DNA of 64,000 nt from Candidatus Heimdallarchaeum endolithica (GCA_021513715.1 CP084167.1:2848001-2912000); one strand, 5' to 3'; positions 28,244-49,522 are shown, counted from the stretch's first letter. Program-made: numbers and translations. Notes: a model not told the origin generated them from the letters alone.

Positions 28244-29253
28244 TGTTTACTCAATAGACTTGGGTTACACTTTTGGGTACTAGAGAAACATAGGGGTGAT
28301 TCATAAATCTTTCTCCTGGGGTGAGGAAGTTAAGAGATTGGTGAGGACGACTAAAATTGTAGTAAGAGCGGTAGTAGGAGAGATCTGCGTTGCAGTATTT
28401 TAGACCTAATCTTTCCATCTCACGGATGATTGTCCCATGTAGTCTTTCTACTTTTCCACATGTTTCGGGGTGAAAAACTCTAGCTCTGATGTGCTTTATT
28501 CCTTCTGTTTGACACCAACGGGAGAAGGTACTTGTTCCTCCTCTAACGGAAGAGAAGAGTGCTCCATTGTCAGTAAGTATAGACTCGGGGTAACCGTACT
28601 CTTTTATTGCTTCCTCTAGCAAACTTATTATCTGCTCTTTTTTTGGTGCAAAAGGGTGGAATTCAGCTCCCAGACAGAATCGTGAGTGGTCGTCTATCAA
28701 GGTTATGAGGTGGAGATGTTGTCCCTGTTCTTCTACCCAGAATGGTCCTTTCACATCTATTTGCCAGAGTTCGTTAGGTTTTTGACGTTCAAAACTCTTG
28801 TATCGAGGTCTTTTCCTCTTTTTTCTATTAACCCATAAAGGAAGACCTAACTCTTTTATTACTTTCGTCACTGTCGTCTGAGAGAGTGCTTTTCCTTCTC
28901 TCTTCAACAAATAAGCTATCTTCTCCACATTCATTCCTTGTTTTATTCTTAACTCCCTTATCCTCTCTTTTAACTCCTCATCTACTTTCCTGTGTATAGT
29001 TTTTGGTCTGGAAGATCTATCTTTCCACCATACTCCTTCAGGGTTCTCTCTGAACCTCTTCAACCACTTATACACAAACTTCCTACTCACCATATACTTG
29101 TGAGCTACTTCTTTTATCTTCTCTCCTTCCAAAGCTTTTTTAACCACAATCTTTCTTAGTTTCTCCAGGTTACGTTCGTTTTTGTTCATAATATATCACT
29201 TACCCACGTAACCCACTTCTATTTATTTGTTACCAATGTGAGTTGAGTATACA
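28244..29253 (-). mobile_element. IS481-family insertion sequence, 1010 bp
   Basis: TGT...ACA ends; 26-bp imperfect TIRs (TGTTTACTCAATAGACTTGGGTTACA vs TGTATACTCAACTCACATTGGTAACA); flanked by 16-bp direct repeat CTCTCCAGATTTTTTT at 28228-28243 and 29254-29269. Confidence 0.95.
28251..29189 (-). CDS. IS481-family DDE transposase
   Basis: HTH (VSRKFVYKWLKRF), DRSSRP, PNELWQID, IDDHSRF, ILTDNG, PETCGKVER, YNFSRPHQSL. Confidence 0.97.
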   Translation of the reverse strand: MNKNERNLEKLRKIVVKKALEGEKIKEVAHKYMVSRKFVYKWLKRFRENPEGVWWKDRSSRPKTIHRKVDEELKERIRELRIKQGMNVEKIAYLLKREGKALSQTTVTKVIKELGLPLWVNRKKRKRPRYKSFERQKPNELWQIDVKGPFWVEEQGQHLHLITLIDDHSRFCLGAEFHPFAPKKEQIISLLEEAIKEYGYPESILTDNGALFSSVRGGTSTFSRWCQTEGIKHIRARVFHPETCGKVERLHGTIIREMERLGLKYCNADLSYYRSYYNFSRPHQSLNFLTPGERFMNHPYVSLVPKSVTQVY

Positions 29254-34060: not shown

Positions 34061-34699
34061 CTAACCGTACAACTCTCGTTTAATAGTCTCAAAGATTCCA
34101 TCTATTCTATCGTACATTTCTTCTCCGCCTTTCAAAGCTGAGATTGCTTCCCATCCGTGAAATGACCTTGGATAACGTTCTTTCAAGTGTTCCCAAGCAG
34201 CTTTAAAGTTTTCTCTCAAGTACTCATCTGCTTTTGCTTTGCTAAAATCAAGTAAGTCGATTTTATTCACTACTAAGAAAAAGATGGCTTTTGCTTTTCT
34301 TGCTTTACGCTCAGCTTTGACAATATCATTATCTAGAGTCATAAGAAAATAATTGCTAACTTGAGTTAAAGCATCAATTTGAACTTTAGTATCTTGAGTG
34401 GGGTCAATCATGAAAATTATACCGTTAGTCTTGTAGTCCTGCATTGCTTTCTTCCAATAAGGCCACAAAGACATATCTCCAGGGCAATCTACTGCCATAA
34501 CCTTGTATGTCCTATATTTTTCTAAGCTTAAAGCTGATTTGTATTGTTGACTTTTGAGTTTTATACGTTTAGAGTGCACTTCAATTTGTGTTGTAGGACT
34601 TATATCTTCGATATCTTCTCCCTTGATTCTTTTAATTAGAGTAGTTTTACCTACTCCTGTTGCACCTAAAATTGTGATTGATAATTCACGAGTTAACAT
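34061..34699 (-). CDS. Ras/Arf-superfamily small GTPase
   Basis: G1 GATGVGKT, G2 PT, G3 DCPG, G4 NKID, G5 SAL. Confidence 0.9.
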   Translation of the reverse strand: MLTRELSITILGATGVGKTTLIKRIKGEDIEDISPTTQIEVHSKRIKLKSQQYKSALSLEKYRTYKVMAVDCPGDMSLWPYWKKAMQDYKTNGIIFMIDPTQDTKVQIDALTQVSNYFLMTLDNDIVKAERKARKAKAIFFLVVNKIDLLDFSKAKADEYLRENFKAAWEHLKERYPRSFHGWEAISALKGGEEMYDRIDGIFETIKRELYG

Positions 34700-35044
34700 T
34701 GTTATTCAACTGAATAGTTAGTTTATTCAGTATATCAATCTTTTGTAAAGATTAAGTATACACTTTAGTCAAAAAATCAAAATTCAATCTAATAGGTGTT
34801 GAAATTAGGATAATTGGAATTATCGCTTTAAATTTAATAAAAGGCTGATAAGCGCTATTTCTAAAAATTATGATACTAATAATTAAAAAAATTAAAAATA
34901 GGTTTTAAATTTTCTTTAAATTTAATATTTCTAAAAAATATTATCTATTTTTTCTAAATTTTTCTATTTTTCACGCAAAAAAAGCGCAATTCTAATGTGC
35001 GTTTTTAGCGCATCTAGCATTGTTTTTTAGAACTTCCAAAACTT

Positions 35045-35060
35045 GAGAAAGGTTTATAAG
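35045..35060 (+). promoter_or_regulatory. Probable BRE/TATA promoter of the kor-hdr-mvh-frd operon
   Basis: GAGAAAGG followed by TTTATAA ~58 bp before the first ORF. Confidence 0.55.
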
Positions 35061-35116
35061 GAGACTGTTGGTGTTCTTGTAGATTATTAAAAATTAAGTT
35101 GATATGTGAATAGTAT

Positions 35117-35449
35117 ATGAATTATACTGTCGATTATGATAAAAAAAAGAAAAAAGCGGAGTGGCCCGCTTTCATAAATATAAGTGAATGGAAACAAGAA
35201 CACCCCGTAATATATTTAATCCCAGAACGTTGCAAAGCTTGTAGTTTCTGCATAAATTACTGCCCTGAACAGATACTTGAATTTTCTTCAGATATCAACC
35301 AAAAGGGTTATCATCTTCCCAAACTTAAAGAGGGTAAGGATTTTTCTAACTGTGCAGAGTGTCATTTTTGCGAATTAATTTGTCCTGAATTCGCTATTTT
35401 TGTGAAGGTTCCGGAAAAACAAGAAGAGGAGGAGAAACAAGATGAGTAA
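35117..35449 (+). CDS. korD: 2x[4Fe-4S] ferredoxin, 2-oxoacid oxidoreductase delta subunit
   Basis: CKACSFCINYCP, N.KGYH.P, CAECHFCELICPEFAI; upstream of korA. Confidence 0.88.
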   Translation: MNYTVDYDKKKKKAEWPAFINISEWKQEHPVIYLIPERCKACSFCINYCPEQILEFSSDINQKGYHLPKLKEGKDFSNCAECHFCELICPEFAIFVKVPEKQEEEEKQDE

Positions 35450-36614
35450 AACAATTCAGAAAGAAGAAGATCGAACTGTTTTAACTGGTGAATACTTTAC
35501 AACAGGAAACCTTGCTGCTGCAGAAGGAGCTTTGGCTGCTGGATGTAAGTTTTTTGGTGGTTATCCTATTACTCCTAGTTCAGAGATCGCAGAACACATG
35601 TCTTATCGTCTTCCCCAAGTTGGAGGGCATTTCCTTCAATTCGAAGATGAAATTGCTTCTATCGTATCAATTCTTGGAGCAAGTTGGGGAGGATGGAAAT
35701 CTATGACTGCAACTTCTGGGCCAGGTTACTCATTGATGTTGGAAAATATTGGTCTAGGTATAATGACTGAAACTCCTTGTGTTATAATAAATGTGCAACG
35801 AGGAGGACCATCTACTGGTCTACCAACACTAGTAGGTCAGCAAGATATCCAACAGACAAGATGGGGGTCACATGGAGATTATGAAGTAATAGCTTTAGCA
35901 CCAAATAGTGTTCAAGAATGCTTTGATTTAGTAATTGTTGCTTTTAATTATGCTGAAAAATATAGATTACCTGTAACTTTGCTAATGGATGAAACACTTG
36001 GTCATATGAGTGAAAAGTTGATTATACCAAAAAAAGATGATATCAAGATTATTAATAGAAAGAAGCCCAAAGATGATCCTTCCAGTCATCTTCCCTATAA
36101 AGCAGATGAAGATCTAGTACCACCAATGGCTACAGCTGGAGAAGGATATCGTGTTATAACCACAGGATTAACACATGATGAAAGAGGATATCCTGTTTTA
36201 GATGCAGAAACCCAAGAAAAACTTCTGCGAAGATTAATTAATAAAATAAAAAAGAATAAAGATGATATAATTTTACTTGAGGAATATAAACTTAAAGATG
36301 CTGAGCTAATAATTATCTCCTTTGGTATAAGTGCACGTGCTTCGAAAGGAGCAATTGAACTTGCAAGAAAAAAGGGGATAAAGGTTGGTCTTTTAAGACT
36401 TATTACCATCTGGCCATTTGCTGATGAACATATAGAAAAACTTGCAGAAAAAGTTGATAACATCTTGGTTGTTGAAATTAATTCTGGACAAGTTACAAGA
36501 GAGGTTCAGAGAGCTGTAAAGGGTAAAGCTAACGTACATGGAGTGCTTAAGCATGGAGGTACCATTCATACACCAGAAGAAATCTTATCTGAGATAGAGA
36601 GGAGAGTAAAATGA
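35442..36614 (+). CDS. korA: 2-oxoglutarate(2-oxoacid):ferredoxin oxidoreductase alpha subunit
   Basis: GYPITPSSE, EDEIAS, TATSGPG, VQRGGPSTGLPT, GSHGD. Confidence 0.92.
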   Translation: MSKTIQKEEDRTVLTGEYFTTGNLAAAEGALAAGCKFFGGYPITPSSEIAEHMSYRLPQVGGHFLQFEDEIASIVSILGASWGGWKSMTATSGPGYSLMLENIGLGIMTETPCVIINVQRGGPSTGLPTLVGQQDIQQTRWGSHGDYEVIALAPNSVQECFDLVIVAFNYAEKYRLPVTLLMDETLGHMSEKLIIPKKDDIKIINRKKPKDDPSSHLPYKADEDLVPPMATAGEGYRVITTGLTHDERGYPVLDAETQEKLLRRLINKIKKNKDDIILLEEYKLKDAELIIISFGISARASKGAIELARKKGIKVGLLRLITIWPFADEHIEKLAEKVDNILVVEINSGQVTREVQRAVKGKANVHGVLKHGGTIHTPEEILSEIERRVK

Positions 36615-37471
36615 CTAGTGAATTATTAAAAGCTGAAGAACATCCTTCAGATGTATTTCTAAGACCCGGTAGAATACCTCATATCTGGTGTCCTGGGTGC
36701 AGTTTAGGTTCAGTAACGAATGTGATTATACAAGCAATAAAACAAAGTGGAATTGATTCTAAAAAGATAGCTATAATTTCTGGTATTGGTTGCACAGGAA
36801 GAGCTGCAGGCTATCTGAATTTTGATTCTTTTCACACAACTCATGGTAGAGCTATACCTTTTGCTATAGGATTAAGCGTAACTGACCCTGAGAGAAAAGT
36901 TATTGTTATTTCAGGAGATGGAGATTTAGCTTCTATAGGAGGTAATCATCTGATTCATGGAGCTAGAAGAAATGCAGACATTACAGTTATTTGTGTAAAT
37001 AACTTTCAATATGGAATGACTGGTGGGCAAGTAGGCCCTACTTCCTACGAGGGACAATTTCAGACTACTGCCCCATATGGAAATGTTGAGCATCCATTTG
37101 ACCTACCAGGTTTAGCTTATTCATGTGGGGCAACTTTTGTAGCAAGGTGGACAGCTCTTGATGTTAGAAGAATGAAAGAAACAATTATTGAAGCGATTCT
37201 ACATAAAGGATTCTCTTTTGTAGAAATTTTGGGCTCATGTCCTACAACTTATGGTAGAAGAAATCAATTAAGAGAAGGTTTAGAAATTTTAGAAAATTTC
37301 AGAAAGAGGACAGTATTGCAACATGGAGCTGACCCAACAAAAACTGAAATCTCCAAAGATGGACCTATAATTGTTGGAAAATTTGTTGAAATAAAAGATA
37401 AATCAACCTTAACAGATAACTTGCTTAAAGTTCAAAGAATAGCAAAAGCAACAAAATCAAGGGGGTTATAA
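36611..37471 (+). CDS. korB: 2-oxoacid:ferredoxin oxidoreductase beta subunit
   Basis: WCPGC, SGIGC, HTTHGR, GDGD...IGGNH, YGMTGGQ, CPT. Confidence 0.92.
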   Translation: MTSELLKAEEHPSDVFLRPGRIPHIWCPGCSLGSVTNVIIQAIKQSGIDSKKIAIISGIGCTGRAAGYLNFDSFHTTHGRAIPFAIGLSVTDPERKVIVISGDGDLASIGGNHLIHGARRNADITVICVNNFQYGMTGGQVGPTSYEGQFQTTAPYGNVEHPFDLPGLAYSCGATFVARWTALDVRRMKETIIEAILHKGFSFVEILGSCPTTYGRRNQLREGLEILENFRKRTVLQHGADPTKTEISKDGPIIVGKFVEIKDKSTLTDNLLKVQRIAKATKSRGL

Positions 37472-37472
37472 A

Positions 37473-38012
37473 ATGCCAAGAGTAGAAATACGTTTTGCTG
37501 GTTTTGGAGGACAAGGAATCGGTCTTCTAGGAAGATTAATGGGTGAAGCAATTGCTTTGTATATGGAAGAAAAAAATGCTATAATGACTCAGAGCTATGG
37601 ACCTGAAAGTAGAGGAGGAGCCAGTAGTTCTGATGTTGTGATTGATGAAGGAGAAATTGCCTACCCTAAAGCAACTCATTATGATTATTTAGTTGTTATG
37701 TCAGAGGAAGCCTATCATAAATACATCCCGAATTTGAAAGAAGGGGGAACATTATTTGTAGAAGAGAATCTAGTAATCCTCGATGATCATGCTAAAAAAG
37801 CTGGAAAAATCTTGAAAATTCCTGCAACTAAAATAGCTGAAGAAATAGGAAGTAGTTTATATGCAAATATTGCAATGTTGGGTTTTTTCTGTGCAAATAC
37901 TGATATAGTATCTGAAGATGCGCTAAAGAAGGTGATAAGAGAAAAAGTGAAAGCACGTTTTGTAAAGAATAATCTTATTGCTTTCGAAAAGGGGAAAAAC
38001 TATAAGGGATGA
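37473..38012 (+). CDS. korC: 2-oxoacid:ferredoxin oxidoreductase gamma subunit
   Basis: AGFGGQG, QSYGPESRGG.S. Confidence 0.92.
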   Translation: MPRVEIRFAGFGGQGIGLLGRLMGEAIALYMEEKNAIMTQSYGPESRGGASSSDVVIDEGEIAYPKATHYDYLVVMSEEAYHKYIPNLKEGGTLFVEENLVILDDHAKKAGKILKIPATKIAEEIGSSLYANIAMLGFFCANTDIVSEDALKKVIREKVKARFVKNNLIAFEKGKNYKG

Positions 38013-39979
38013 AAAAAATGGATGAGAAAAAGAAAGTTGGAGTATTTGTTTGTCATTGTGGAAGAAATATCGCTCAAACTGTTGATATAGAAAAACTAAT
38101 GGAAAAAGTCAGAGAAAAGTATGATGTTGAGCTTGTAGAAGATAATATGTATATGTGTTCTGATCCAGGACAAAATTTGTTAAAAGAGTCAATTCAAGCA
38201 AAGAATTTAAATCGAGTTATTGTTGCTGCTTGTTCTAGAGATATGCATGAGCCAACATTCAGAAGTGCAGCTCAAGAAGCTGGTTTAAATCCTTATTTAG
38301 TTGAAATTGCTAATATTAGAGAACAAGTTAGTTGGGTTCATGATGACAAAGAAAAAGCAACAGAAAAAGCTTCAAAGATAATAGGTTCAACAATTGAAAA
38401 AGTAATAAGAGATGAACCTTTAGAACCTCTTAAAATACCTGTTGTTCAAAGAGCATTAGTTATTGGAGGAGGAATTGCAGGAATACAAGCTGCTCTTGAT
38501 ATTGCTGATGCAGGATATGAAGTAACTTTGGTTGAAAAATCTCCTACTATTGGAGGACACATGGCACAATTAGCTGAAACATTTCCGACTTTGGATTGTA
38601 GTCAATGTATTTTAACACCAAAAATGGTTGCTGTAAGTCGACATCCAAAAATTAACTTGCTGACAACCAGTGAAGTTGTAAGTGTTGATGGGTATGTTGG
38701 AAACTTTAAAGTGCAAATAAGAAAGAATCCGAGATATGTAGATGTTGATAAATGTAATCTCTGTGATGATTGTACAGCTGTATGTCCTGTAGTGGTTCAT
38801 GATGAATATAATCAAAGTTTATCCCCAAGAAAAGCTATTTATATCCCATTTCCTCAAGCTGTACCTGCATCGTATGTTATTGACGAGGAAACTTGTTTGG
38901 GAATTGATCCTCTGATCTGTTCAAAATGTAAAGATGTCTGTTTAGTTGAAGCAATAAATTTCGATATGCAACCAGAAATAATTGAAGAAGAATTTGGTGC
39001 CATAATTGTTGCCACTGGATATGATACCTATCCAATAGAAAATATAGGTGAGTATGGTTATGGTGCTCATCCAGATATTATTTCAGGACTAGACTTTGAA
39101 AGATTATTATCTGCAAATGGACCAACACAAGGTGTTATAAGAAGACCTTCAGATGGAAAAGTCCCAAAAACTGTAGTGTTTGTTCATTGTGCTGGTTCTA
39201 GAGATCCTGCTAAACATTTACCTTATTGTTCTAAAATATGCTGTATGTACTCTACAAAACATGCTTTGCAGTATAAACATCTTGTTCATGATGGAACTGC
39301 GATTAACTTTTATATTGATGTAAGAACAGCAGGAAAAGATTATGAAGAATTCTATAAACGTGCTGCAGAAGAAGAAAAGGTGATTTATGTAAGAGGAAAG
39401 GTCTCTGAAATAATAGAAGACGGAGATCAGCTTCTAGTAAAAGGTGTGGATACATTATTGGGAGAAGCAGTAGAAGTTCATGCTGATCTAGTTGTTTTAG
39501 CTACAGGATTAGTTCCAAGTAAAGGAACACAAGAAATTTCACATCTTTTGAAATTATCTTGCGATAGTAAAGGATTTCTCAAAGAAGCACATCCAAAATT
39601 AAAACCTGTAGAATCAGCTCTATCTGGTATTTTTATTGCAGGAACTGCTTCTGGTCCAAAAGACATTCCAGAGACAGTTTCTCAAGCTTCTGGGGCAGCA
39701 GCAAAAGCTGCAACAATTCTGGCTTCTGAATTCCTTGAAAGAGAGCCTCAAATCGCACAGGTAGATCCAACAACTTGCGGTCTGTGTCATACTTGTATTA
39801 ATGTTTGTCCCTATGGAGCGATCTATTTAGATGAAGGTGTGAGAAGAATAACTGTTCGAGAAGCACTATGTGAAGGATGTGGAAGTTGTGCAGCTGCTTG
39901 TCCTTCTGGTAGCATTGAATTAAAAAACTCTACTTCTGAAGGAATTAGAGCGCAGATTAAAGCATTGTTACAAGGGTGA
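38009..39979 (+). CDS. hdrA: Heterodisulfide reductase subunit A (bifurcating flavoprotein)
   Basis: GVFVCHCG, YMCSDPGQ, ANIREQ, GGGIAG, FPTLDCSQC, YCSKICC, E.HPKL.P, GPKDIP, ferredoxin motifs. Confidence 0.97.
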   Translation: MKKMDEKKKVGVFVCHCGRNIAQTVDIEKLMEKVREKYDVELVEDNMYMCSDPGQNLLKESIQAKNLNRVIVAACSRDMHEPTFRSAAQEAGLNPYLVEIANIREQVSWVHDDKEKATEKASKIIGSTIEKVIRDEPLEPLKIPVVQRALVIGGGIAGIQAALDIADAGYEVTLVEKSPTIGGHMAQLAETFPTLDCSQCILTPKMVAVSRHPKINLLTTSEVVSVDGYVGNFKVQIRKNPRYVDVDKCNLCDDCTAVCPVVVHDEYNQSLSPRKAIYIPFPQAVPASYVIDEETCLGIDPLICSKCKDVCLVEAINFDMQPEIIEEEFGAIIVATGYDTYPIENIGEYGYGAHPDIISGLDFERLLSANGPTQGVIRRPSDGKVPKTVVFVHCAGSRDPAKHLPYCSKICCMYSTKHALQYKHLVHDGTAINFYIDVRTAGKDYEEFYKRAAEEEKVIYVRGKVSEIIEDGDQLLVKGVDTLLGEAVEVHADLVVLATGLVPSKGTQEISHLLKLSCDSKGFLKEAHPKLKPVESALSGIFIAGTASGPKDIPETVSQASGAAAKAATILASEFLEREPQIAQVDPTTCGLCHTCINVCPYGAIYLDEGVRRITVREALCEGCGSCAAACPSGSIELKNSTSEGIRAQIKALLQG

Positions 39980-39984
39980 GAATT

Positions 39985-40449
39985 ATGAGTACATCAAAAC
40001 AAGAACAAGAATCAGGTATAAAAAACCCAAACCCGAAGATAGTCCTTTTCTTATGCCGTTGGTGTTCTGGAAAAGGAGCAGATTTAGCAGGAACATCAAG
40101 ATTAAACTATCCCCCTAATGTTCTGCCAATAATGGTCAATTGTACATCGAGAATTGATCCTAGATTTATAGTAGAAGCTTTTCTAGATGGAGCTGATGGG
40201 GTTCTAGTTACAGGTTGTCACTTTGGTGATTGCCATTACAAGACTGGCAATTACAAAGCATATAGACGTCTCTCACTAGTTGCAAAATTATTGAAACAAG
40301 TCGGAGTTAATCCCAAAAGATTTAGATTGACTTGGATATCAGCAACAGAAGCGACAAAATTTGTGAAAGTGACTACTGAAATGGTAGAAGATTTGAAGAA
40401 ACTTCCTCCTTACTGGAGTAATGAAAATGGAGGTGATAGTGATGAATAA
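39985..40449 (+). CDS. mvhD: Methylviologen-reducing hydrogenase subunit D ([2Fe-2S])
   Basis: FLC.WCS..GADLAG.SR, C..R, GADGV...GCH.GDCHY..GN, WISA.E. Confidence 0.95.
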   Translation: MSTSKQEQESGIKNPNPKIVLFLCRWCSGKGADLAGTSRLNYPPNVLPIMVNCTSRIDPRFIVEAFLDGADGVLVTGCHFGDCHYKTGNYKAYRRLSLVAKLLKQVGVNPKRFRLTWISATEATKFVKVTTEMVEDLKKLPPYWSNENGGDSDE

Positions 40450-41440
40450 ATTAAAGGTCGCAGTAGCTCTTGGAGCAACTTGCGCTGGTTGTGACGTAGC
40501 TATCCTAGATTTAAATGAAAAAATACTAGATGTAATAGAAATAGTAGATTTTGTTTTTTGGCCTACAGCAATGGACTTTAAACTGGATGATCTAAAAGCA
40601 CTAAAAGATGGTGAAGTTGATGTAGGTTTGTACCATGGGGCTATAGGGACAGAAGAAGATGAAGAAATAGCTAAAATATTAAGAAAGAAATCAAAAATAG
40701 TTGTAGCTTTTGGAGCTTGCGCTAATTTTGGTGGGATACCAAGTTTAACAAATATGCCTTATGAATCAAAGATGTTTGATGTGGTTTATAAAGAAAGTCC
40801 ATCTACTTCAAACCCAGAAGGGACTCTACCACAAAAAGAAACAGAGATAGAAGGAACAAAGTTGACTTTACCAGGAATTAGAAAAAGAGCAGATTCTTTA
40901 AACAGTGTTATTGATGTCGATTATTATGTCCCAGGTTGTCCTCCTATGGTTCCTTTGATTGAACAAGTAGTTGATGTCTTAAGAGTGTTTGTTGAAAAAG
41001 GCACTTTACCTCCTAAAGGAGCAGTTATTGCTGGGCAAGATACCTTGTGTAAAGAGTGTGGACGAACTAAACCAGAAACTATTTCTTACAAAGAATTTGT
41101 GTCTCCACAAGAAGTAAAAGAAATTGATCCTGACCTTTGTCTACTCTCGCAAGGAATTCTCTGTTTAGGGCCAGCAACACGTTCTGGTTGTGGAGCCTTA
41201 TGTACAAAAATGAATGTTGGTTGTAGAGGATGTTTAGGACCAACAGACAAAGTCGATGATCATGGTCTGAAAATGATATCTGCTCTAACTTCACTTTTGG
41301 AAGTTGAACATGAAGAAGAATATACAGAGGAAGATTTCGATAAATTATTAGAAAAAATACCTGACCCATTAGGGACATTTTATCGATTTACTTATGGAGT
41401 ATCCATGATCTCTAAATTACATCCAGATAAGGAGGAATAA
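40442..41440 (+). CDS. mvhG: [NiFe] hydrogenase group 3c small subunit
   Basis: CAGC, FGACA..GGIP, VDYY.PGCPP, C..C, CL...G..CLGP.T..GC...C, CRGC.G. Confidence 0.95.
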   Translation: MNKLKVAVALGATCAGCDVAILDLNEKILDVIEIVDFVFWPTAMDFKLDDLKALKDGEVDVGLYHGAIGTEEDEEIAKILRKKSKIVVAFGACANFGGIPSLTNMPYESKMFDVVYKESPSTSNPEGTLPQKETEIEGTKLTLPGIRKRADSLNSVIDVDYYVPGCPPMVPLIEQVVDVLRVFVEKGTLPPKGAVIAGQDTLCKECGRTKPETISYKEFVSPQEVKEIDPDLCLLSQGILCLGPATRSGCGALCTKMNVGCRGCLGPTDKVDDHGLKMISALTSLLEVEHEEEYTEEDFDKLLEKIPDPLGTFYRFTYGVSMISKLHPDKEE

Positions 41441-41442
41441 AA

Positions 41443-42930
41443 ATGAATCAAAAATTAAATCCAAATATAGTGACTATTGAACCAGTCACAAGATTAGAAG
41501 GATTAGCAAAAATAACTGTACTTCTTAATGATGAAGGAAATGTAAAAGATGCTTTTTACCAAGTAGTAGAGCTCAGAGGGTTTGAACGCTTTGTTCAAGG
41601 AAGACCAATTGAAGAAGTTTTGAGAATTACGCCAAGAATCTGTGGTGTGTGTCCTATTCCTCATCATCTTGCACCTGCAATAGCTGCAGATAGAATATAT
41701 GGTGTTGACCCTCCAAAAACTGCAAAACTATTAAGAGAAATGATGGCTTTAGGCCATATTGTTCATAGTCACATTTTACATTTCTATGCTTTTGCTCTTC
41801 CTGATTTTGTATTAGGGGAAAAGAAGGAAGCAGGTACGCATAATATAATTGGTTTAGCTAAGACATTTCCAGATGTTGCCAAAGCAGCTATTAAAGCAAG
41901 AGGAGATGCTCAAAAAATTCAAGCGATGATTGGTGCAAAAGCTACTCATCCTGTTACAGTCATCCCAGGAGGAATAAGTAAGGGAGTAACAAAGGAAGAT
42001 ACAGAAAAAATGTTAGAAATGAGTAATAATATCGTAGAATTCGGTAAATTGGGTCTTAAAGTCTTTGAAGATTTAGTAGTTAAAAATAAGGATCAGATGG
42101 CTCTTATTAATAGTGATGCATATAAAATGGATACCTATTATATGTCAATTGTAGGGCCAAAAAATACGCTTGATTTCTATAATAGTCAAACAGTCAGGGT
42201 AATTGACAGTAAAGGAAAAGAGTTTGCAAAATTTGAGTCTGATAAGTATTTAGACTACATAGATGAACATGTAGAACCTTGGTCATATCTAAAGTTCCCC
42301 TACCTTAAACAGATAGGTTGGAAAGGACTTGTGGATGGACCAAATAGTGGTGTATTTAGGGTTAATGCCTTAGCTCGATTGAATGTTGTAGATAAGATAG
42401 AAACCCCTCTAGCTCAAGAAGCAATGGAAAATATGTACGATGTTCTTGGCGGAAAGCCTGCTCATCATACTCTCGGTTTTAATTGGGCTAGACTAGTTGA
42501 AATCCTTTATTGTGGTGAAAAAATGGTTGAATTAGCTCAGGATCCTGACTTCTATGGTCCAAAATTCAGGGAACAGTTAAGTAAAGACATGATTACTGGT
42601 GAAGGAGTAGGGGCAATAGAAGCACCAAGAGGAACTTTGTATCACCACTATAAGACTGATAAAGAAGGAAAAGTAACCAAAGCTAATATCATAGTAGCTA
42701 CAACAAATAATAATGCTGCAATATGCTTGAGTGTCAAAAAAGCTGCTCAAGAAATGATCAAAAAAGGTCAATATAATGATGATGGACTAAATAAAATTGA
42801 GATGGCTTTTAGAGCCTATGACCCTTGTTTAGCTTGTGCAACTCACGCTATGGTTGGACAGATGCCACTAAAAGTGGAAATATATGATTCTAAGAAAAAT
42901 AAGATAAGAGAGTTGACACGTAAACTATGA
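41443..42930 (+). CDS. mvhA: [NiFe] hydrogenase group 3c large subunit
   Basis: TRLEG, RGFE, L1 RICGVC, EAPRG, L2 RAYDPCLACATH plus cleavable C-terminal tail. Confidence 0.96.
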   Translation: MNQKLNPNIVTIEPVTRLEGLAKITVLLNDEGNVKDAFYQVVELRGFERFVQGRPIEEVLRITPRICGVCPIPHHLAPAIAADRIYGVDPPKTAKLLREMMALGHIVHSHILHFYAFALPDFVLGEKKEAGTHNIIGLAKTFPDVAKAAIKARGDAQKIQAMIGAKATHPVTVIPGGISKGVTKEDTEKMLEMSNNIVEFGKLGLKVFEDLVVKNKDQMALINSDAYKMDTYYMSIVGPKNTLDFYNSQTVRVIDSKGKEFAKFESDKYLDYIDEHVEPWSYLKFPYLKQIGWKGLVDGPNSGVFRVNALARLNVVDKIETPLAQEAMENMYDVLGGKPAHHTLGFNWARLVEILYCGEKMVELAQDPDFYGPKFREQLSKDMITGEGVGAIEAPRGTLYHHYKTDKEGKVTKANIIVATTNNNAAICLSVKKAAQEMIKKGQYNDDGLNKIEMAFRAYDPCLACATHAMVGQMPLKVEIYDSKKNKIRELTRKL

Positions 42931-43433
42931 AAATAGCGATTATCGGCCTAGGAAACCCTATTGTGGGGGATGATGCTGTAGGAATAAGAGTCTTAGATTA
43001 TATAAAAGAAAACAAGATTCTTCCTTACTTTGTAGACATTATGGTCGATGTAAGCCTTTCTGGGATAGGTTTAGTTGAATTATTCAGAGGATATGATAAA
43101 GTAATAATAATAGACTCAATGCAATCTAATCAATTTGAGCCTGGGACAGTTTTAAGACTCAACCCAGACCAATTTGTAAGTGCGCTACATGTTTCTGATT
43201 ATCATAATATGGATTTCTTTACTGCTTACGAATTTGGAAAAGAAATTTATGATGATCTACCATCAAACGAACAAATTGTTATCCTCGGAATTGAAATTAA
43301 TTATATCACTGTATTTAGCGAACAGCTATCTCCAGAAATAAAGTCAAAGTTTAATGAAATAGTAAACGATGTTTATCAGTTTATTGAAAACGAAATAAAT
43401 CAAGAAAAGGAGATTATACGCAATGTCCTTTGA
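42927..43433 (+). CDS. Hydrogenase maturation protease (HycI/HyaD family)
   Basis: IGLGNP..GDDAVG, IIID, H. Confidence 0.92.
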   Translation: MKIAIIGLGNPIVGDDAVGIRVLDYIKENKILPYFVDIMVDVSLSGIGLVELFRGYDKVIIIDSMQSNQFEPGTVLRLNPDQFVSALHVSDYHNMDFFTAYEFGKEIYDDLPSNEQIVILGIEINYITVFSEQLSPEIKSKFNEIVNDVYQFIENEINQEKEIIRNVL

Positions 43434-43836
43434 GTATATAAAAATAGGAAAAGAAGAAAAAGAATTCATAAGTAAAATAGAAGATATCAGCGGACAGAAT
43501 CTATATGCATGTTATCAATGTGGAAAATGTACCGCTGGATGTTCTTTTAGTAATCAAATGGATCTTACAGTAAACCAAGTTATTCATAGATTACAACTTG
43601 GACAAAAAGAAAAAGTGCTGAGTGCAAAGAGTCCTTGGGTTTGTGCAAGTTGTCTGACTTGTACAGTAAGATGCCCACGAGATATTGACGTAGCTGCGAT
43701 AATGGAGTCAGTAAGAGAATACATTCTACGTTATGAACCAGAGAGGATAGAAAGAATGAAAGTTACAGAAGAAAAAGCTAAAAAGCTTCCTAATATAGCC
43801 CTTGTAGGTAGTTTTAGGAAAAATACTGAATTATAA
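43423..43836 (+). CDS. hdrC: Heterodisulfide reductase subunit C
   Basis: CYQCGKCTAGC, W.C.SC.TC..RCPR. Confidence 0.92.
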   Translation: MSFEYIKIGKEEKEFISKIEDISGQNLYACYQCGKCTAGCSFSNQMDLTVNQVIHRLQLGQKEKVLSAKSPWVCASCLTCTVRCPRDIDVAAIMESVREYILRYEPERIERMKVTEEKAKKLPNIALVGSFRKNTEL

Positions 43837-43848
43837 TAGGTGAATTAA

Positions 43849-44739
43849 ATGAAATATTCATATTTTCCAGGATGCAATCTCAAAACAAATGCAAAGGAAT
43901 ATGAACATACAGCTGTAGAAGTTTCAAAAATATTGGACGCTGAGCTCGTAGAAATGCCAGTGTTTAATTGTTGTGGGACAGTTCATAGTATGGTTTCAGA
44001 TAATACTATGAGAAGAGTGGCTCCTGTACGTATTCTTTCAAGATCTGAAGAACATCAGAAAGAGTTAGAAGATACAAAAAATACCGTTGTAACTCTTTGC
44101 TCGATGTGTAGTTCAACACTAAAAGTAGTGAATGAAGAAGTAAAAGAAGACGAAGAAATGCTACAAAAAATAAATTGGCAACTTGAAAGAGATAATCTAA
44201 AATATTCTGGCCATTCAGAAGTCAAACATTATTTAGAAATACTTAGAGATGAAGTTGGTTTTGAAGAAATCATTAAAAAGGTTAAAAAACAACTTAAAGG
44301 AATGAAAATTGCTTCCTATTATGGTTGTATGTTGTTGCACCCAGACAAAGCTAAAATAGATGATAGTGAAACACCTACAGTAATGGAAAGCCTTACTCTT
44401 GCACTTGGAGGAGAAGTAGTTGATTGGCCTTATTTTAAAACTTGTTGCGGTTCTTATCATGTTGTAGATAAAGAAGATATCGTAAACAATCAAGTTTTGA
44501 AAATAACGGAGGGTGCAAAAAAAAGAGGAGCTAATGCTATAATTACTGCTTGTCCTTTGTGCGCTTATAATCTAGATAGTCAACAAGTATTTTTACAGAA
44601 AAAAGGAGTAATTAAAGAAACCATACCTGTCTTCTACTTTACTCAACTTATGGCAATAGCTCTAGGGATAAAATTGAAAAATTTTGAAGATCATCATGTA
44701 GATCCTAAACCTTTACTAAAAAGTCTAGGATTAATTTAA
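43849..44739 (+). CDS. hdrB: Heterodisulfide reductase subunit B (two CCG domains)
   Basis: YFPGC, CCG, C..C, YYGC, CCG, CPLC..NLD, YFTQL. Confidence 0.93.
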   Translation: MKYSYFPGCNLKTNAKEYEHTAVEVSKILDAELVEMPVFNCCGTVHSMVSDNTMRRVAPVRILSRSEEHQKELEDTKNTVVTLCSMCSSTLKVVNEEVKEDEEMLQKINWQLERDNLKYSGHSEVKHYLEILRDEVGFEEIIKKVKKQLKGMKIASYYGCMLLHPDKAKIDDSETPTVMESLTLALGGEVVDWPYFKTCCGSYHVVDKEDIVNNQVLKITEGAKKRGANAIITACPLCAYNLDSQQVFLQKKGVIKETIPVFYFTQLMAIALGIKLKNFEDHHVDPKPLLKSLGLI

Positions 44740-44758
44740 AAAAAAAGAGGAATAAAAA

Positions 44759-45481
44759 ATGGCAAAAGCAATATCAATGAGAGAAAAAAAAGAAGAACTT
44801 GACACAGTAACCATATATATTATGGGTCAAGGATACAAAGTTCCTTCTTCTTTAACCATAATGAAAGCAATGGAATATGCTGGTTTTAAACTTAAAAGAG
44901 GAGTCGGGTGTCGTGCAGGTTTTTGTGGAGCATGTGCAACCGTTTATAGAAAATTAGGCGATTACAAAATATATGCTAACTTGGCATGTCAAACTAAAGT
45001 TGAAGACGGGATGTATCTCACACAATTACCTTTTGTTCCTGCAAATAAAGCAGAATACAATCTTGATGAGATTAAACCTTCAGCTTCAACAATGCTCCGT
45101 TTCTATCCAGAAATAGCAAGATGCTTAAGTTGTAATGCTTGTTCAAGAGTGTGCCCACAAGATATACAAGTAATGGATTATGTTCAATACAGTTTGCAAG
45201 GGCAAATAGATAAAGCAGCTGAACTAGCTTTTGATTGTATTCAATGCGGTCTTTGCGCAATTCGTTGCCCAGCAGAGATTCCTCAATATCATGTGGCAAC
45301 ATTGGCACGAAGATTACATGGTAGATATCATATGATTGCTCCTGACACTCTAGAACAAAGAGTAAAGGAAATAGAAGAAGGAAAATACGAAAAAGGATTT
45401 GAAGAGTTGATGTCTCTATCTGAAGAAGAATTAAAGAAACGATACGTTGCAAGAGACTTTATTGATCAGAAAAAGGCGTGA
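44759..45481 (+). CDS. Fumarate reductase/succinate dehydrogenase-like iron-sulfur subunit ([2Fe-2S] + 2x[4Fe-4S])
   Basis: GCRAGFCGAC...LAC; CLSCNAC...CP; CIQCGLC...CP. Confidence 0.85.
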   Translation: MAKAISMREKKEELDTVTIYIMGQGYKVPSSLTIMKAMEYAGFKLKRGVGCRAGFCGACATVYRKLGDYKIYANLACQTKVEDGMYLTQLPFVPANKAEYNLDEIKPSASTMLRFYPEIARCLSCNACSRVCPQDIQVMDYVQYSLQGQIDKAAELAFDCIQCGLCAIRCPAEIPQYHVATLARRLHGRYHMIAPDTLEQRVKEIEEGKYEKGFEELMSLSEEELKKRYVARDFIDQKKA

Positions 45482-47145
45482 GTAAAATGATTAGAGGATA
45501 TCCAGAAAGTATGAGAAAAAGTATTGACAAAGTCAATAAAACAAGAGATAAGAGAATCGACCAAATTATGAAAGATTTGACTCTTGAAGAGCGTGAGAAA
45601 GTATTGCACGAGTTTCACCCAGACTATAATCCGGCATACAAAAGAGATATTGGTTGGGGACAAAATAAGGGAGATAATGTTCCTAATGAAGTAGCAGATA
45701 TACTGGAATCATATCCAATTTATGATCCAGATGAAATCGATTTAAGCCAAATAGACTATGATGTTGGCGTGTTGATTATTGGTGCAGGAGGAGCTGGAAC
45801 AGCAGCAGCATTATGGACTGTTTATTCTGGAGTGCCAAAAGATAAGATTCTGCTGGCAACCAAACTTAGGTTAGGAGATTGTAATACTGTTATGGCGCAA
45901 GGAGGAATCCAAGCAGCCGATAGACCAGAAGATTCACCTTTGATTCATTATTTGGATGCTATGGGTGGAGGACACTTCAAAAACAAACCTGAGTTAGTAA
46001 AAGCACTTGTTTCTGATGGACCAAAAATAATCAAGTGGCATAAAGAACTAGGTTTAATGTATGATCAAAACGAAGATGGAAGTTTTGTAGAAAATGCTGG
46101 TGGAGGAACATCCAGAAACAGAATGCACTGCGCTAAAGACTATACAGGAATGGAAATTTTCAGAAATTTAAAAGATGAAGTAATTAACAATGAGATACCT
46201 TTGTTAGAATTTTCTCCTGCTGTAGAGCTATTAAAAGATGAAAATGGAAGAGTAGCAGGAGCGTTATTGTATAATCTAGAAACGAAAGAATATTCTGTCG
46301 TGAGAGCAAAAACAACCATTTTAACCACAGGTGGATTCGGAAGGTTGCACATCGCAGGGTTTGCGACAACAAATCATTATGGAGCAACAGGAGACGGAAT
46401 AGTTATGGCTTACAGAGCTGGAGCTAAACTAAGAGACTTAGATTCAACACAGTTCCACCCAACAGGAGCAGCTTTTCCAGAGCAAATAGTAGGATTACTG
46501 ATTACTGAAAAATTAAGAAGCTTAGGAGCACAAGTTTTAGGAAAGAATGGTGAACAAATATGCTATCCATTAGAACCAAGAGATGTTGAAGCTGCTTCAA
46601 TAATAAAAGTAACAAAAAGTACAGATAATTATGTTGAAACTCCTACGGGAATGAGAGGAGTTTGGCTAGACAGCCCATTGATTGAAGAAATTAGAGGAAA
46701 AGGTACTATCGATAAGAATCTTGCTGCTATGAAAAGGATGTTCTCAAGATTCGATATTGATATGACTGAAGATCCTATACTAGTTCATCCAACTCTACAT
46801 TATCAGAACGGAGGAGTAGAACTTGATGAGCATGGTTATACTTCTGTACCTGGATTGCTAGGTGCAGGTGAGATAAGTGGTGGTGTTCATGGAAAGAATC
46901 GTCTCATGGGTAATTCTCTTCTTGAGGTCAACGTTTTCGGCAGAAGAGCAGGTATATCTGCTGCTAAAGAATATAAACGAGGTAAAAAACCAGGTAAGCT
47001 TACTCTGTCTCATGTAAAGAAAGCAATTGAGCAAATAGATACTCTAAATCTCAAGAAAAAACGTTTTTCACCTGTCATTCTTCCAGAATATCGTAGTGAA
47101 GCAGTTAGAGATCGTTTAATTCAACTATTTGAATCTAGTCTCTAG
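45478..47145 (+). CDS. Soluble fumarate reductase-like flavoprotein (SdhA/FrdA/TfrA family, non-covalent FAD)
   Basis: GAGGAG, NT.MAQGG, TGDG, QFHPT, ITE, PRD, HY..GG, HG.NRL.GNS. Confidence 0.85.
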   Translation: MSKMIRGYPESMRKSIDKVNKTRDKRIDQIMKDLTLEEREKVLHEFHPDYNPAYKRDIGWGQNKGDNVPNEVADILESYPIYDPDEIDLSQIDYDVGVLIIGAGGAGTAAALWTVYSGVPKDKILLATKLRLGDCNTVMAQGGIQAADRPEDSPLIHYLDAMGGGHFKNKPELVKALVSDGPKIIKWHKELGLMYDQNEDGSFVENAGGGTSRNRMHCAKDYTGMEIFRNLKDEVINNEIPLLEFSPAVELLKDENGRVAGALLYNLETKEYSVVRAKTTILTTGGFGRLHIAGFATTNHYGATGDGIVMAYRAGAKLRDLDSTQFHPTGAAFPEQIVGLLITEKLRSLGAQVLGKNGEQICYPLEPRDVEAASIIKVTKSTDNYVETPTGMRGVWLDSPLIEEIRGKGTIDKNLAAMKRMFSRFDIDMTEDPILVHPTLHYQNGGVELDEHGYTSVPGLLGAGEISGGVHGKNRLMGNSLLEVNVFGRRAGISAAKEYKRGKKPGKLTLSHVKKAIEQIDTLNLKKKRFSPVILPEYRSEAVRDRLIQLFESSL

Positions 47146-47818
47146 TAACTATTTTCTTTTTTTTCATCTCTCTTTCTATTTCTTTTATTGAAAATATTTT
47201 TCCATGAGAAGGATATAGCCACTCTACTCCTTCATCTATTAATTTTTTCCAACTTTCGTATATCTTTTCTTTTTCATTTGCAACTATAGGAAAATAGCTT
47301 TTTCCTGAAAGCAATGGAAACTTCATTACAATATCTCCTATAAAAGCATGTTTTTGTTTGAAAATTAAAGAAATTGAACCATCAGTATGTCCTGGTGTAT
47401 GGATTATTTTAGCGTCAAATCCATAATCACTAAGTGATAATTCATTACTTACTTTGATTTCTACAGAAAAGGGAGCAATCTCACGCTTTATCGAAGGAAA
47501 TATCATTTTCAGTAATTTATTCGTTAAAACAGCTTCTGGTGTATTCCCTTTTTCAACCATATTAGCTTCTGTTTCATGCATTAAAACCTCTGCTCCTGTA
47601 ATTTCTTTCATCTCTTTCACTGATCCAATATGGTCAATGTGTCCGTGAGTAATAACAATTAGTTTAATGTTTTTTGGCTCGATAGAGAGTTTTCGTAGAA
47701 AATTAATTATTTTTTTATGACTTTTTAACATCCCTGTATCAACTAAGATGTAATTGCTATTCTCTTTTATGAGATAACTATTAACATAACCTAATTTTAT
47801 TCTGTGAATAGAAATCAT
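47135..47818 (-). CDS. Metallo-beta-lactamase fold hydrolase
   Basis: LVDTG, THGHIDH, TPGHT.G, GD, P.HG. Confidence 0.93.
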   Translation of the reverse strand: MISIHRIKLGYVNSYLIKENSNYILVDTGMLKSHKKIINFLRKLSIEPKNIKLIVITHGHIDHIGSVKEMKEITGAEVLMHETEANMVEKGNTPEAVLTNKLLKMIFPSIKREIAPFSVEIKVSNELSLSDYGFDAKIIHTPGHTDGSISLIFKQKHAFIGDIVMKFPLLSGKSYFPIVANEKEKIYESWKKLIDEGVEWLYPSHGKIFSIKEIEREMKKKKIVTRD

Positions 47819-48136
47819 AATTATCAAAAAAAATTTGATTGCAGCATTATATCTTTTTCGAATATTTTGATTTTTATTGGTTTTTTGAAATTTGATTATT
47901 TTTCAGTTAATTAAAAATCAAACTTACTGTTAACTAAAAAATATATTAGCTGTATTACCTTTTAACTTTTAAATTATCCAGATTTTATTGCTAAATATTT
48001 TATTCTTTTGGTTTAACTACTACAATTATTTAAACCATTAATATCTTCTTATTTGCTCTTTTTTACTCTCTCTAATAATAAAATAATGCTTTTTTTTAAT
48101 TAGGTTTATAGTGTAAGCTTTTTAAGGGCACTTTAA

Positions 48137-49522
<1,386 letters not shown>

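Follow-up and report, generated by a model that had tools for sequence, protein, structure and literature searches.

Organization of the operon

The genome of Candidatus Heimdallarchaeum endolithica (GCA_021513715.1) is a single contig of 3.33 Mb, and the stretch analyzed here, referred to as the window (CP084167.1:2848001-2912000; 64,000 nt, at 2.85 Mb), carries between positions 35117 and 47145 a row of 13 open reading frames (ORFs), all on the + strand, in the order korDABC-hdrA-mvhDGA-protease-hdrC-hdrB-FeS-flavoprotein. The row brings together a four-subunit 2-oxoacid:ferredoxin oxidoreductase (Kor), a [NiFe] hydrogenase with a heterodisulfide reductase (Mvh-Hdr), and an iron-sulfur (FeS) protein paired with a fumarate-reductase-like flavoprotein. 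On balance, we favor the interpretation that this operon encodes a soluble H2:fumarate/ferredoxin electron-bifurcating complex, with Kor as the user of the ferredoxin.

Genes were identified by their Pfam and NCBIfam profile matches, and copy numbers were obtained by searching the complete genome with all 13 proteins by tblastn. A preliminary description of the window had proposed a 13-gene operon, and all of the reading frames are indeed present, their identities backed by the profiles. Junctions between the 13 genes range from −29 to +19 nt. The AT-rich intergenic region 5' of korD (34700–35116, + strand; 417 bp), common to a divergent GTPase gene, is the sole sizeable noncoding stretch and the only room for a promoter; the motif TTTATAA stands in it about 55 nt ahead of the korD ATG. 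Because of the short junctions and the one upstream region, the 13 genes most likely form one tight transcription unit. A scan for sigma-70 promoters and terminators gave no excess over chance, the scan being of a bacterial type that is inapplicable to an archaeal host. The earlier remark that no membrane anchor gene is present was borne out, since none of the 13 products has an anchor-grade hydrophobic stretch of 19 residues.

Hydrogenase and Hdr subunits

HdrA, the bifurcating flavin adenine dinucleotide (FAD)/FeS flavoprotein (38009–39979), matches the NCBIfam models HdrA2 and HdrA with 822 and 648 bits and aligns over its full length with the HdrA chains of methanogen structures (704 bits with 8rvu and 691 bits with 5odc; residues 4–654 against 8–653 of 8rvu_a). 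Next come mvhD (39976–40449), for the [2Fe-2S] adaptor between hydrogenase and HdrA (FlpD, 168 bits; VhuD model), and the genes for the small and large subunits of a group 3c-type [NiFe] hydrogenase, mvhG (40421–41440; Oxidored_q6, best model VhuG with 183 bits) and mvhA (41443–42930; NiFeSe_Hases, best model VhuA with 390 bits). The nickel-binding motifs of MvhA are intact, L1 as RICGVCPIPH at residue 65 and L2 as DPCLACATH at residue 460; a cleavable C-terminal tail comes after L2, and a hydrogenase maturation endopeptidase is encoded directly downstream (42927–43433; HycI; TIGR00072, 92.9 bits, over its cut-off). This Mvh-type enzyme is the fourth hydrogenase of the genome.

HdrC (43423–43836; Fer4_8 and Fer4_17) is a protein of 137 residues with eight cysteines for two [4Fe-4S] clusters, whose best models, CoB_CoM_SS_C and QmoC, are under their cut-offs. 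HdrB (43849–44739) has two CCG domains with ten cysteines for two noncubane [4Fe-4S] clusters. It scores nearly equally with SdhE of methylmenaquinol:fumarate reductase (148 bits) and with HdrB (145 bits), and its best matches in the PDB are methanogen HdrB chains (100–117 bits). It is a member of a dedicated subfamily, which accompanies the FeS/flavoprotein pair. Given the full-length match of HdrA, the nickel motifs of MvhA with the accompanying protease, and the ten CCG cysteines, HdrA, MvhDGA, HdrC, and HdrB all look functional.

FeS/flavoprotein pair

The last two genes encode an SdhB/FrdB-like iron-sulfur subunit of 240 residues (44759–45481; Fer2 and Fer4 dicluster families) and a fumarate-reductase-like flavoprotein of 555 residues (45478–47145). 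In the FeS protein, a [2Fe-2S] motif of the plant type (CxxxxCxxC...C) is combined with two CxxCxxCxxxCP motifs; their 12 cysteines are conserved in 16 orthologues, and no CCG domain was found in the protein with Pfam. The 488-position model of TfrB, from thiol:fumarate reductase (TfrAB), matches the FeS protein at model positions 19–85 only, with 44 bits against a cut-off of 385. When an AlphaFold2 (AF2) model was searched with Foldseek, the best full-length matches were FrdB and SdhB chains, at a low TM score of 0.28; phmmer against the PDB returned generic ferredoxin-like matches and no SdhB.

The sole Pfam domain of the flavoprotein is FAD_binding_2 (residues 98–481). Its best NCBIfam model is TfrA (309 bits, cut-off 718) and the second is nadB (261 bits), both far under their cut-offs; positions 427–546 of the TfrA model are unmatched, and residues 1–94 of the query are extra. 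The catalytic and dicarboxylate-binding residues are kept (His327 of QFHPT, Thr343/Glu344, Arg368, His441, and Arg475), and an alignment with SdhA, FrdA, and NadB structures, including 1nek_A and 7d6v_A, recovers the two histidines (QFHPT, HY), the two arginines (PRD, NRL), and the Thr-Glu hinge. Asn136 occupies the position of SdhA His45, the carrier of covalent FAD. No C-terminal Succ_DH_flav_C domain was found in the flavoprotein with Pfam, the chain being about 120 residues short at this end. FrdA and SdhA are the top structural matches of an AF2 model with a pTM of 0.78.

The catalytic residues are invariant in 14 flavoproteins from Asgard archaea, Theionarchaea, Methanofastidiosia, Thermoplasmata, and Acetothermia, and the alignment of these sequences has a mean column identity of 75%, N-terminal extension included. 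Invariant residues of this 95-residue extension include G7, Y8, and H47-P-D-Y50. The extension recurs in 289 representative clusters, nearly always at the N-terminus; most of the gene calls concerned are truncated, and their lengths vary. The extension, Asn136, and the missing C-terminal domain are considered family traits.

We class the pair as a distinct anchorless SdhAB-like unit that falls outside TfrAB. Membership in TfrAB was considered and rejected because there is no CCG domain, without which the FeS subunit does not make the pair a thiol:fumarate reductase, and because the TfrA and TfrB scores are far under their cut-offs. L-Aspartate oxidase (NadB) was rejected as well: AGGGTS of the flavoprotein aligns with EGGHS of NadB, so that the essential Glu is absent, GGGT is invariant across the family, and an FeS partner is always present. 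The active-site residues, the link to Kor, and the fumarase, malic enzyme, and phosphoenolpyruvate carboxykinase (PEPCK) genes that neighbor the pair in other genomes suggest that fumarate/succinate would be the substrate.

A search for natural fusions of the FeS-subunit family found no HdrB-FeS fusion and instead one with an FNR-like module. This single protein, P0121 (ENA, 521 residues), joins FAD_binding_6/NAD_binding_1 to the FeS subunit and hints that NAD(P)H may pass electrons directly to the FeS/flavoprotein unit in some organisms; an artefact of gene calling is possible.

Kor subunits

The operon begins with korD (35117–35449; Fer4_7 and other Fer4 families), for the delta subunit, which has eight cysteines in two CxxCxxCxxxC motifs, i.e., two [4Fe-4S] motifs; its best NCBIfam models, OGOR_delta and OorD, are both under cut-off. 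The alpha subunit KorA (35442–36614; POR_N and PFOR_II) matches NF006412, "2-oxoacid:acceptor oxidoreductase alpha," with 571 bits, over the cut-off, and the 2-oxoglutarate synthase alpha model with 424 bits, under it; its match in the PDB is 8ys5 (2-oxoglutarate synthase alpha, 299 bits). For the beta subunit KorB (36611–37471; TPP_enzyme_C), which binds thiamine pyrophosphate, the best NCBIfam model is 2-oxoglutarate ferredoxin oxidoreductase beta (244 bits, under cut-off), and the gamma subunit KorC (37473–38012; POR family) matches NF006323 (189 bits, under cut-off). All four subunits of Kor are present, and their best specific models are of the OGOR and Oor types, all under cut-off, with the generic alpha model alone passing. 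We take 2-oxoglutarate as the putative substrate of Kor.

Genome-wide complement

HdrA, HdrB, HdrC, MvhD, the FeS protein, and the flavoprotein each have one copy in the genome, all in the operon. This answers the suggested check for other Hdr and Sdh copies: the operon holds the only HdrA/HdrB/HdrC/MvhD/SdhA/B-like set. HdrB had been described as the only CCG protein, and this is correct within the operon; two more CCG ORFs exist elsewhere in the genome. One is HdrD/GlcF-like, with Fer4_8 and two CCG domains in 397 residues, and adjoins a Dld/GlcD-like FAD_binding_4 oxidase (G000:C1:1234147-1236350, C1 being the single contig). The host organism was enriched on lactate.

Neither McrA (PF02249) nor ComA (PF02679) was found in the single-contig genome, control genomes being positive; other routes of coenzyme M (CoM) and coenzyme B (CoB) synthesis were not searched. 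The earlier statement that the window lacks methanogenesis genes can thus be extended to the whole genome for these two families, and since neither was found, CoM-S-S-CoB is very unlikely to be available as a substrate.

No family match was found in the whole genome for citrate synthase, Iso_dh, malate dehydrogenase (MDH) of the Ldh_1 type, or malic enzyme. The genome does encode an Ldh_2-type MDH (C1:593310-594344), a class I fumarase (C1:2655130-2655930), SucCD, and an NADP-type GdhA. Judging by these genes, the tricarboxylic acid (TCA) part of metabolism is an open branch of the kind seen in Methanococcales and Methanobacteriales, corresponding to the reductive branch by which methanogens reach glutamate. 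In the description of strain PR6, which has a circular genome of 3.32 Mb, the main text lists a membrane-bound hydrogenase and two sulfhydrogenases and mentions neither Hdr nor fumarate (PMC8813620).

Conservation and exchange of modules

Gene order among Asgard archaea was compared by tblastn against 20 fetched loci, and co-occurrence was scored at the level of orthologues in 400 Asgard species genomes. The full order of 13 genes recurs in the sister species Ca. Heimdallarchaeum aukensis PM71 (protein identities of 96–97%), in another family of the same class (f7), and in genome G131. Other Asgard families have hdrA-mvhDGA-hdrCB-FeS-flavoprotein without kor, or have the genes reordered, and hdrC-hdrB-FeS-flavoprotein is contiguous in 18 of the 20 loci. 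HdrB and the flavoprotein are found together in 63 of the 400 genomes, out of 64 with HdrB and 67 with the flavoprotein; the mismatches (four with the flavoprotein only, one with HdrB only) are all on fragmentary contigs, and 332 genomes have neither. The operon system is thus present in about 17%, or about one in six, of the sampled Asgard species.

The G131 locus (L034; G131:C17:658700-676700), labelled Lokiarchaeota (family f19), has all 13 genes in the same order at 62–78% identity on a contig of 819 kb. Its flavoprotein nests within the Heimdallarchaeaceae clade, and the locus may represent either a recent transfer of the operon or a mis-binned contig.

Outside the Asgard archaea, one genome per species was scanned. 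Carriers number at least 598 species, at 53–65% identity, from many uncultured anaerobic archaeal and bacterial phyla; the hdrCB-FeS-flavoprotein core recurs among them, often together with Kor and Mvh. Gene neighborhoods were read for the best 80 species loci. Of these 80, 79 have the FeS gene adjacent, 62 have co-directional Hdr genes, 34 combine Kor with Hdr, and 16 contain all four modules, in varied gene orders. When only the 24 loci flanked by 9 kb or more on each side are counted, 18 have Hdr, 15 combine Kor with Hdr, and eight contain all four modules. Where the FeS-flavoprotein locus has no Hdr gene, HdrB of the operon type is encoded elsewhere in the genome in four of five cases. The flanks of such loci contain malic enzyme with fumarase alpha and beta in a metagenome-assembled genome (MAG) of Dehalococcoidales, malic enzyme in a Cloacimonadales MAG, and PEPCK in a WOR-3 MAG. 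In two loci from uncultured bacteria (L078 and L091), the pair faces a divergent row that starts with an SLBB-domain (RnfC/NuoF-like) gene, not Hdr, and an ELFV-type dehydrogenase gene lies downstream.

The electron donor module can also differ between close relatives. Sister genera of the same family, including AB_125, have Fer4, Fer4_22, and FAD_binding_6/NAD_binding_1/DHODB-FeS genes in place of mvhG, mvhA, and the protease gene, with Kor, HdrA, HdrCB, and the FeS/flavoprotein pair unmoved. By its domain content this trio is an FlxCBA-like NAD(P)H module, and we read the replacement as a clean donor swap within one family. The swapped genes lie at L032:4532-7894 (G032) and in the equivalent stretches of L033, L048, and L049.

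Conservation of the gene order had been proposed as a check, and its outcome is positive for the full order in the three Asgard lineages named above and for the core in many phyla. Chance falls far short of explaining the arrangement, given that its order is shared with the sister species, two further Asgard families, and many more phyla; the association of the modules is real, functional, and modular.

On a tree of the flavoprotein, the Asgard sequences fall into several separate clades among those of Thermoplasmata, Bathyarchaeia, Culexarchaeia, and bacteria, and at least six to seven changes of the Asgard label are required. By an approximately unbiased (AU) test, chosen after the first tree was known, monophyly of the Asgard sequences is rejected (p = 0.0014, delta lnL 146). 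The Asgard flavoproteins are polyphyletic, which points to repeated horizontal transfer, and the cluster behaves as a mobile metabolic module that says little on the Asgard ancestor of eukaryotes. The relevance to the eukaryotic host lineage claimed in the preliminary description is weak in view of this polyphyly and of the small share of Asgard species that carry the system.

Flanking genes

The NADP-type glutamate dehydrogenase gene gdhA (48161–49522, + strand; ELFV_dehydrog families; NF006929, 746 bits, over its cut-off) is a separate transcription unit. It lies about 1 kb downstream of the operon, as described earlier, but a convergent gene for an MBL-fold hydrolase (47135-47827, − strand) intervenes and overlaps the end of the flavoprotein gene by 11 nt. 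The MBL-fold gene is kept at the same place in the sister species and is on the + strand in two sister-genus loci. Only half of the sucCD pair attributed to the window is found there: sucD, for succinyl-CoA synthetase alpha (157–1059, + strand; CoA_binding and Ligase_CoA), lies 34 kb upstream of the operon, but sucC, which ends at the left edge of the window and has an ATP-grasp_2 match just left of it (C1:2847049-2847624), is almost wholly outside.

Two small GTPases of the Arf/Ras type, which are eukaryotic signature proteins, are encoded at 23188-24066 (+ strand) and 34061-34699 (− strand), the latter reading divergently from the promoter region of the operon. A transposase of the insertion sequence (IS) type, with HTH and rve integrase core, is encoded 6 kb upstream of the operon (28251-29189, − strand).

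Relation to known systems

A bifurcating complex with fumarate as acceptor has been proposed for the flx-hdr-kor-tfr cluster of tubeworm symbionts (PMC6315080, PMC11636981). The cluster, frdB-frdA-hdrC-hdrB-korDABC-hdrA-flxDCBA, lies in a reductive TCA island of the symbionts and of Thioflavicoccus mobilis (Rubin-Blum et al. 2019, PMC6315080), and it is co-expressed in operon-like fashion (Mitchell et al. 2024, PMC11636981). By the gene list in the supplement of PMC6315080, it resembles the operon described here in having a four-subunit Kor, HdrABC, an MvhD/FlxD adaptor, and a putative soluble FrdB/FrdA beside hdrCB, interspersed and co-directional, and the Flx-like donor version is found in the sister genera of Heimdallarchaeum. 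By synteny, the symbiont TfrAB is a putative member of the same sequence family as our pair. The two clusters differ in donor, which is FlxABC (NADH) in the symbionts and a [NiFe] hydrogenase (MvhGA with its protease) here, and in host, an Asgard archaeon in our case. In addition, the window has no ATP-citrate lyase island and no citrate synthase was found, which is why an open reductive branch rather than the full cycle would be served. The operon is, in this comparison, an H2-driven archaeal variant of the published proposal for the Flx version, and its mechanism is not original.

The methanogen MvhADG-HdrABC complex (5ODC, 8RVU, 9SFI) shares all six subunit types and their cofactor motifs with the operon, and by the same logic as there, H2 would reduce ferredoxin here with a high-potential acceptor as the driving force. 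Unlike in methanogens, McrA and ComA were not found here, HdrC is shorter (137 residues), kor is part of the operon, and HdrB is of a subfamily linked with an SdhB/SdhA-like pair. Another soluble, anchorless fumarate reductase with intact catalytic residues is TfrAB of Methanothermobacter (Heim et al. 1998, as cited in PMC8163825). It resembles our pair further in an additional Cys, by which the third cluster becomes a [4Fe-4S], and in its place in the branch to 2-oxoglutarate. TfrB, however, bears two CCG domains of its own, whereas here the CCG domains are on the separate HdrB, and our flavoprotein has the N-terminal extension of 95 residues and lacks about 120 C-terminal residues. Type E succinate:quinone oxidoreductase/methylmenaquinol:fumarate reductase (SdhABE) also combines an SdhA/SdhB pair with a CCG-domain subunit; in contrast to this, the system described here has no quinone link or membrane association, and its CCG protein would be wired to HdrC and HdrA. 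In the Hdr-Fdh-Fwd complex of Methanospirillum hungatei (7BKB), the low-potential electron of HdrA reaches a CO2-fixing enzyme through a polyferredoxin with no free ferredoxin. KorD could play a matching role, although the acceptor enzyme is a different one and the docking of KorD on HdrA is purely conjectural.

Tfr syntenic with an Hdr-like complex was reported in Mnemosynellales (Adam et al. 2022). In papers on Asgard archaea, WOR-3, and Cloacimonadota, the parts were annotated separately, and CoM-S-S-CoB or an unidentified heterodisulfide was assumed (e.g., PMC11291895). No paper on a hydrogenase-driven or Asgard version, or on the biochemistry of the family, was found in a search that left most subscription journals outside.

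Proposed mechanism and direction

We propose that MvhAG oxidizes H2 and that the electrons pass through MvhD to the FAD of HdrA, where each pair would be split. The high-potential electron would travel by way of HdrC, the two noncubane clusters of HdrB, and the three clusters of the SdhB-like FeS protein to the noncovalent FAD of the flavoprotein, at which fumarate would be reduced to succinate. The low-potential electron would exit by the ferredoxin domains of HdrA to ferredoxin or possibly to KorD directly. Succinate would then be converted by SucCD to succinyl-CoA, reductively carboxylated by Kor to 2-oxoglutarate, and brought to glutamate by the NADP-type GdhA. One fumarate reduced would yield one two-electron ferredoxin, the need of one turnover of Kor, and this match of one to one would account for the presence of kor with the cluster in varied gene orders across phyla. 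Overall, the operon would provide the methanogen route in a hard-wired form that needs no thiols; in methanogens, free CoM/CoB and ferredoxin link Mvh-Hdr, Tfr, and Kor. Whereas the gene content, cofactor motifs, catalytic residues, conservation, and co-occurrence were observed, the assembly of the proteins as one complex, the electron path, and the bifurcation itself are proposed, as are the substrates of Kor and of the flavoprotein and the reductive direction.

The preliminary description had already taken fumarate as the acceptor of Mvh-Hdr, with the reduced ferredoxin going to Kor. In its favor are the intact active-site residues, the single Hdr set and single Frd-like pair, the failure to find McrA and ComA, the co-occurrence of HdrB and flavoprotein, the link to Kor, and the flanking fumarase, malic enzyme, and PEPCK genes; as an idea, it is not new. 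It had left the route open between direct transfer and a thiol shuttle. We favor direct wiring, since the pair has no CCG thiol-oxidizing site, the HdrB subfamily is dedicated to the pair, and TfrB is a fusion. Contact between the FeS protein and HdrB is suggested by a Rosetta-stone argument, as TfrB fuses the FeS and CCG parts and the FeS gene directly follows hdrB here.

The reductive direction appears to us the likelier of the two. It is favored by Asn136 in place of the covalent-FAD histidine, by the failure to find citrate synthase and Iso_dh, by the set of MDH, fumarase, SucCD, and NADP-type GdhA, and by thermodynamics. FrdA mutants at His44 keep fumarate reduction and lose succinate oxidation. 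The fumarate/succinate couple is at +33 mV (PMC5861303), and an estimate from standard potentials indicates that the formation of 2-oxoglutarate from fumarate and 2 H2 is exergonic down to about 1–10 Pa H2.

A bolder version of this proposal is that all 13 products form one supercomplex with neither a thiol carrier nor free ferredoxin, in which the HdrB clusters would be a pure relay into a type-E-like fumarate reductase, KorD would dock on HdrA, and the reaction would be 2 H2 + fumarate + succinyl-CoA + CO2 -> succinate + 2-oxoglutarate + CoA. We consider this version doubtful.

Several points weigh against fumarate-linked bifurcation as proposed. The 2-oxoglutarate-specific models of Kor score under their cut-offs. 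The span from H2 to fumarate is about 450 mV, beyond what bifurcation needs. HdrB is like methanogen HdrB with both clusters kept, so a disulfide-reducing site is possible, and the HdrD/GlcF-like CCG enzyme beside the FAD_binding_4 oxidase could imply a thiol/disulfide carrier. No Hdr gene is nearby in 18 of the 80 species loci, six of which have about 10 kb on both sides, and in one protein an FNR-like NAD(P)H module is joined to the FeS subunit; because of the last two observations, other donors can probably serve the FeS/flavoprotein pair. Finally, the organism was predicted to be an anaerobic organotroph with a partial TCA cycle that disposes of electrons as H2 (PMC8813620).

This last prediction would suit the same machine operating in reverse, which ranks second and stays a serious rival, albeit an unlikely one. 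Here glutamate would be catabolized, and ferredoxin reduced by Kor would confurcate with the electrons of succinate to give H2 for a syntrophic partner, as the preliminary description had also considered. The stoichiometry of one to one fits this direction too, fumarase is present to draw off the fumarate, and confurcation by Mvh-Hdr was proposed in other Asgard archaea (PMC9723677). Yet enzymes with Asn for the covalent-FAD His are established to oxidize succinate poorly, and the mean potential of the donors, about −240 mV against −414 mV for H+/H2, would demand H2 near or below 1 Pa and very low fumarate. The missing histidine and these energetics disfavor the release of H2. Further, no malic enzyme or Ldh_1-type MDH was found in the genome for an oxidative continuation, though an Ldh_2 enzyme exists, GdhA is of the NADP (assimilatory) type, and the bacterial counterpart is within a reductive TCA island.

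Can a diffusible carrier replace the contact between HdrB and the pair? In such a shuttle, one of the options listed by Rubin-Blum et al. (PMC6315080), HdrABC would reduce a low-molecular-weight or protein disulfide, and the pair would re-oxidize the thiols and reduce fumarate. Both CCG motifs are kept in HdrB, whose best PDB matches are true heterodisulfide reductases, the second CCG enzyme of the genome could use the same carrier, and Asgard reconstructions assume an unidentified heterodisulfide (PMC11291895). The FeS subunit, however, has no CCG domain, and no other thiol-oxidizing site is evident in the pair; the search for McrA and ComA was negative, and one HdrB cannot sensibly both reduce and re-oxidize the same carrier. 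That the HdrB subfamily strictly co-occurs with the pair and adjoins it argues for a dedicated protein partner, and we consider the shuttle improbable.

Least probable of all is mere co-location of genes from one pathway, with the pair as an independent soluble fumarate reductase that draws on ferredoxin or some other donor and Mvh-Hdr serving another acceptor: the Hdr-less loci, the FNR-like fusion, and the Rnf-like (SLBB-domain) gene that adjoins the pair in some bacteria would allow it, as would, for a variant with another substrate such as L-aspartate, the second rank of the nadB model and the lack of another NadB candidate in the genome, but the near one-to-one occurrence with a dedicated HdrB type even when unlinked and the hdrC-hdrB-FeS-flavoprotein core of the Asgard loci speak against the former, and the absent NadB glutamate, the constant FeS partner, and the fumarase, malic enzyme, and PEPCK neighbors against the latter.

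Significance

An outstanding question in the field is which acceptor HdrABC uses in organisms that lack CoM and CoB. The operon and its wide conservation offer a testable answer for one large Hdr subfamily, namely fumarate, reached by way of a dedicated HdrB and an anchorless FeS/flavoprotein pair. For models of eukaryogenesis the weight is limited, as the cluster, present in so small a part of the Asgard species sampled, has undergone horizontal transfer on several occasions. If the proposal is true, many annotations as "thiol:fumarate reductase," "SdhAB," or "CoB-CoM heterodisulfide reductase" would need to be re-read, and flavin-based electron bifurcation would gain a new class of acceptor. 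Fumarate would then be the acceptor of a widespread Hdr family of non-methanogens, present in at least 598 species and served by interchangeable donor modules for H2 or NAD(P)H, and there would be an explanation for fumarate reduction, and for the driving of 2-oxoglutarate synthesis, in anaerobes that have no quinones or cytochromes.

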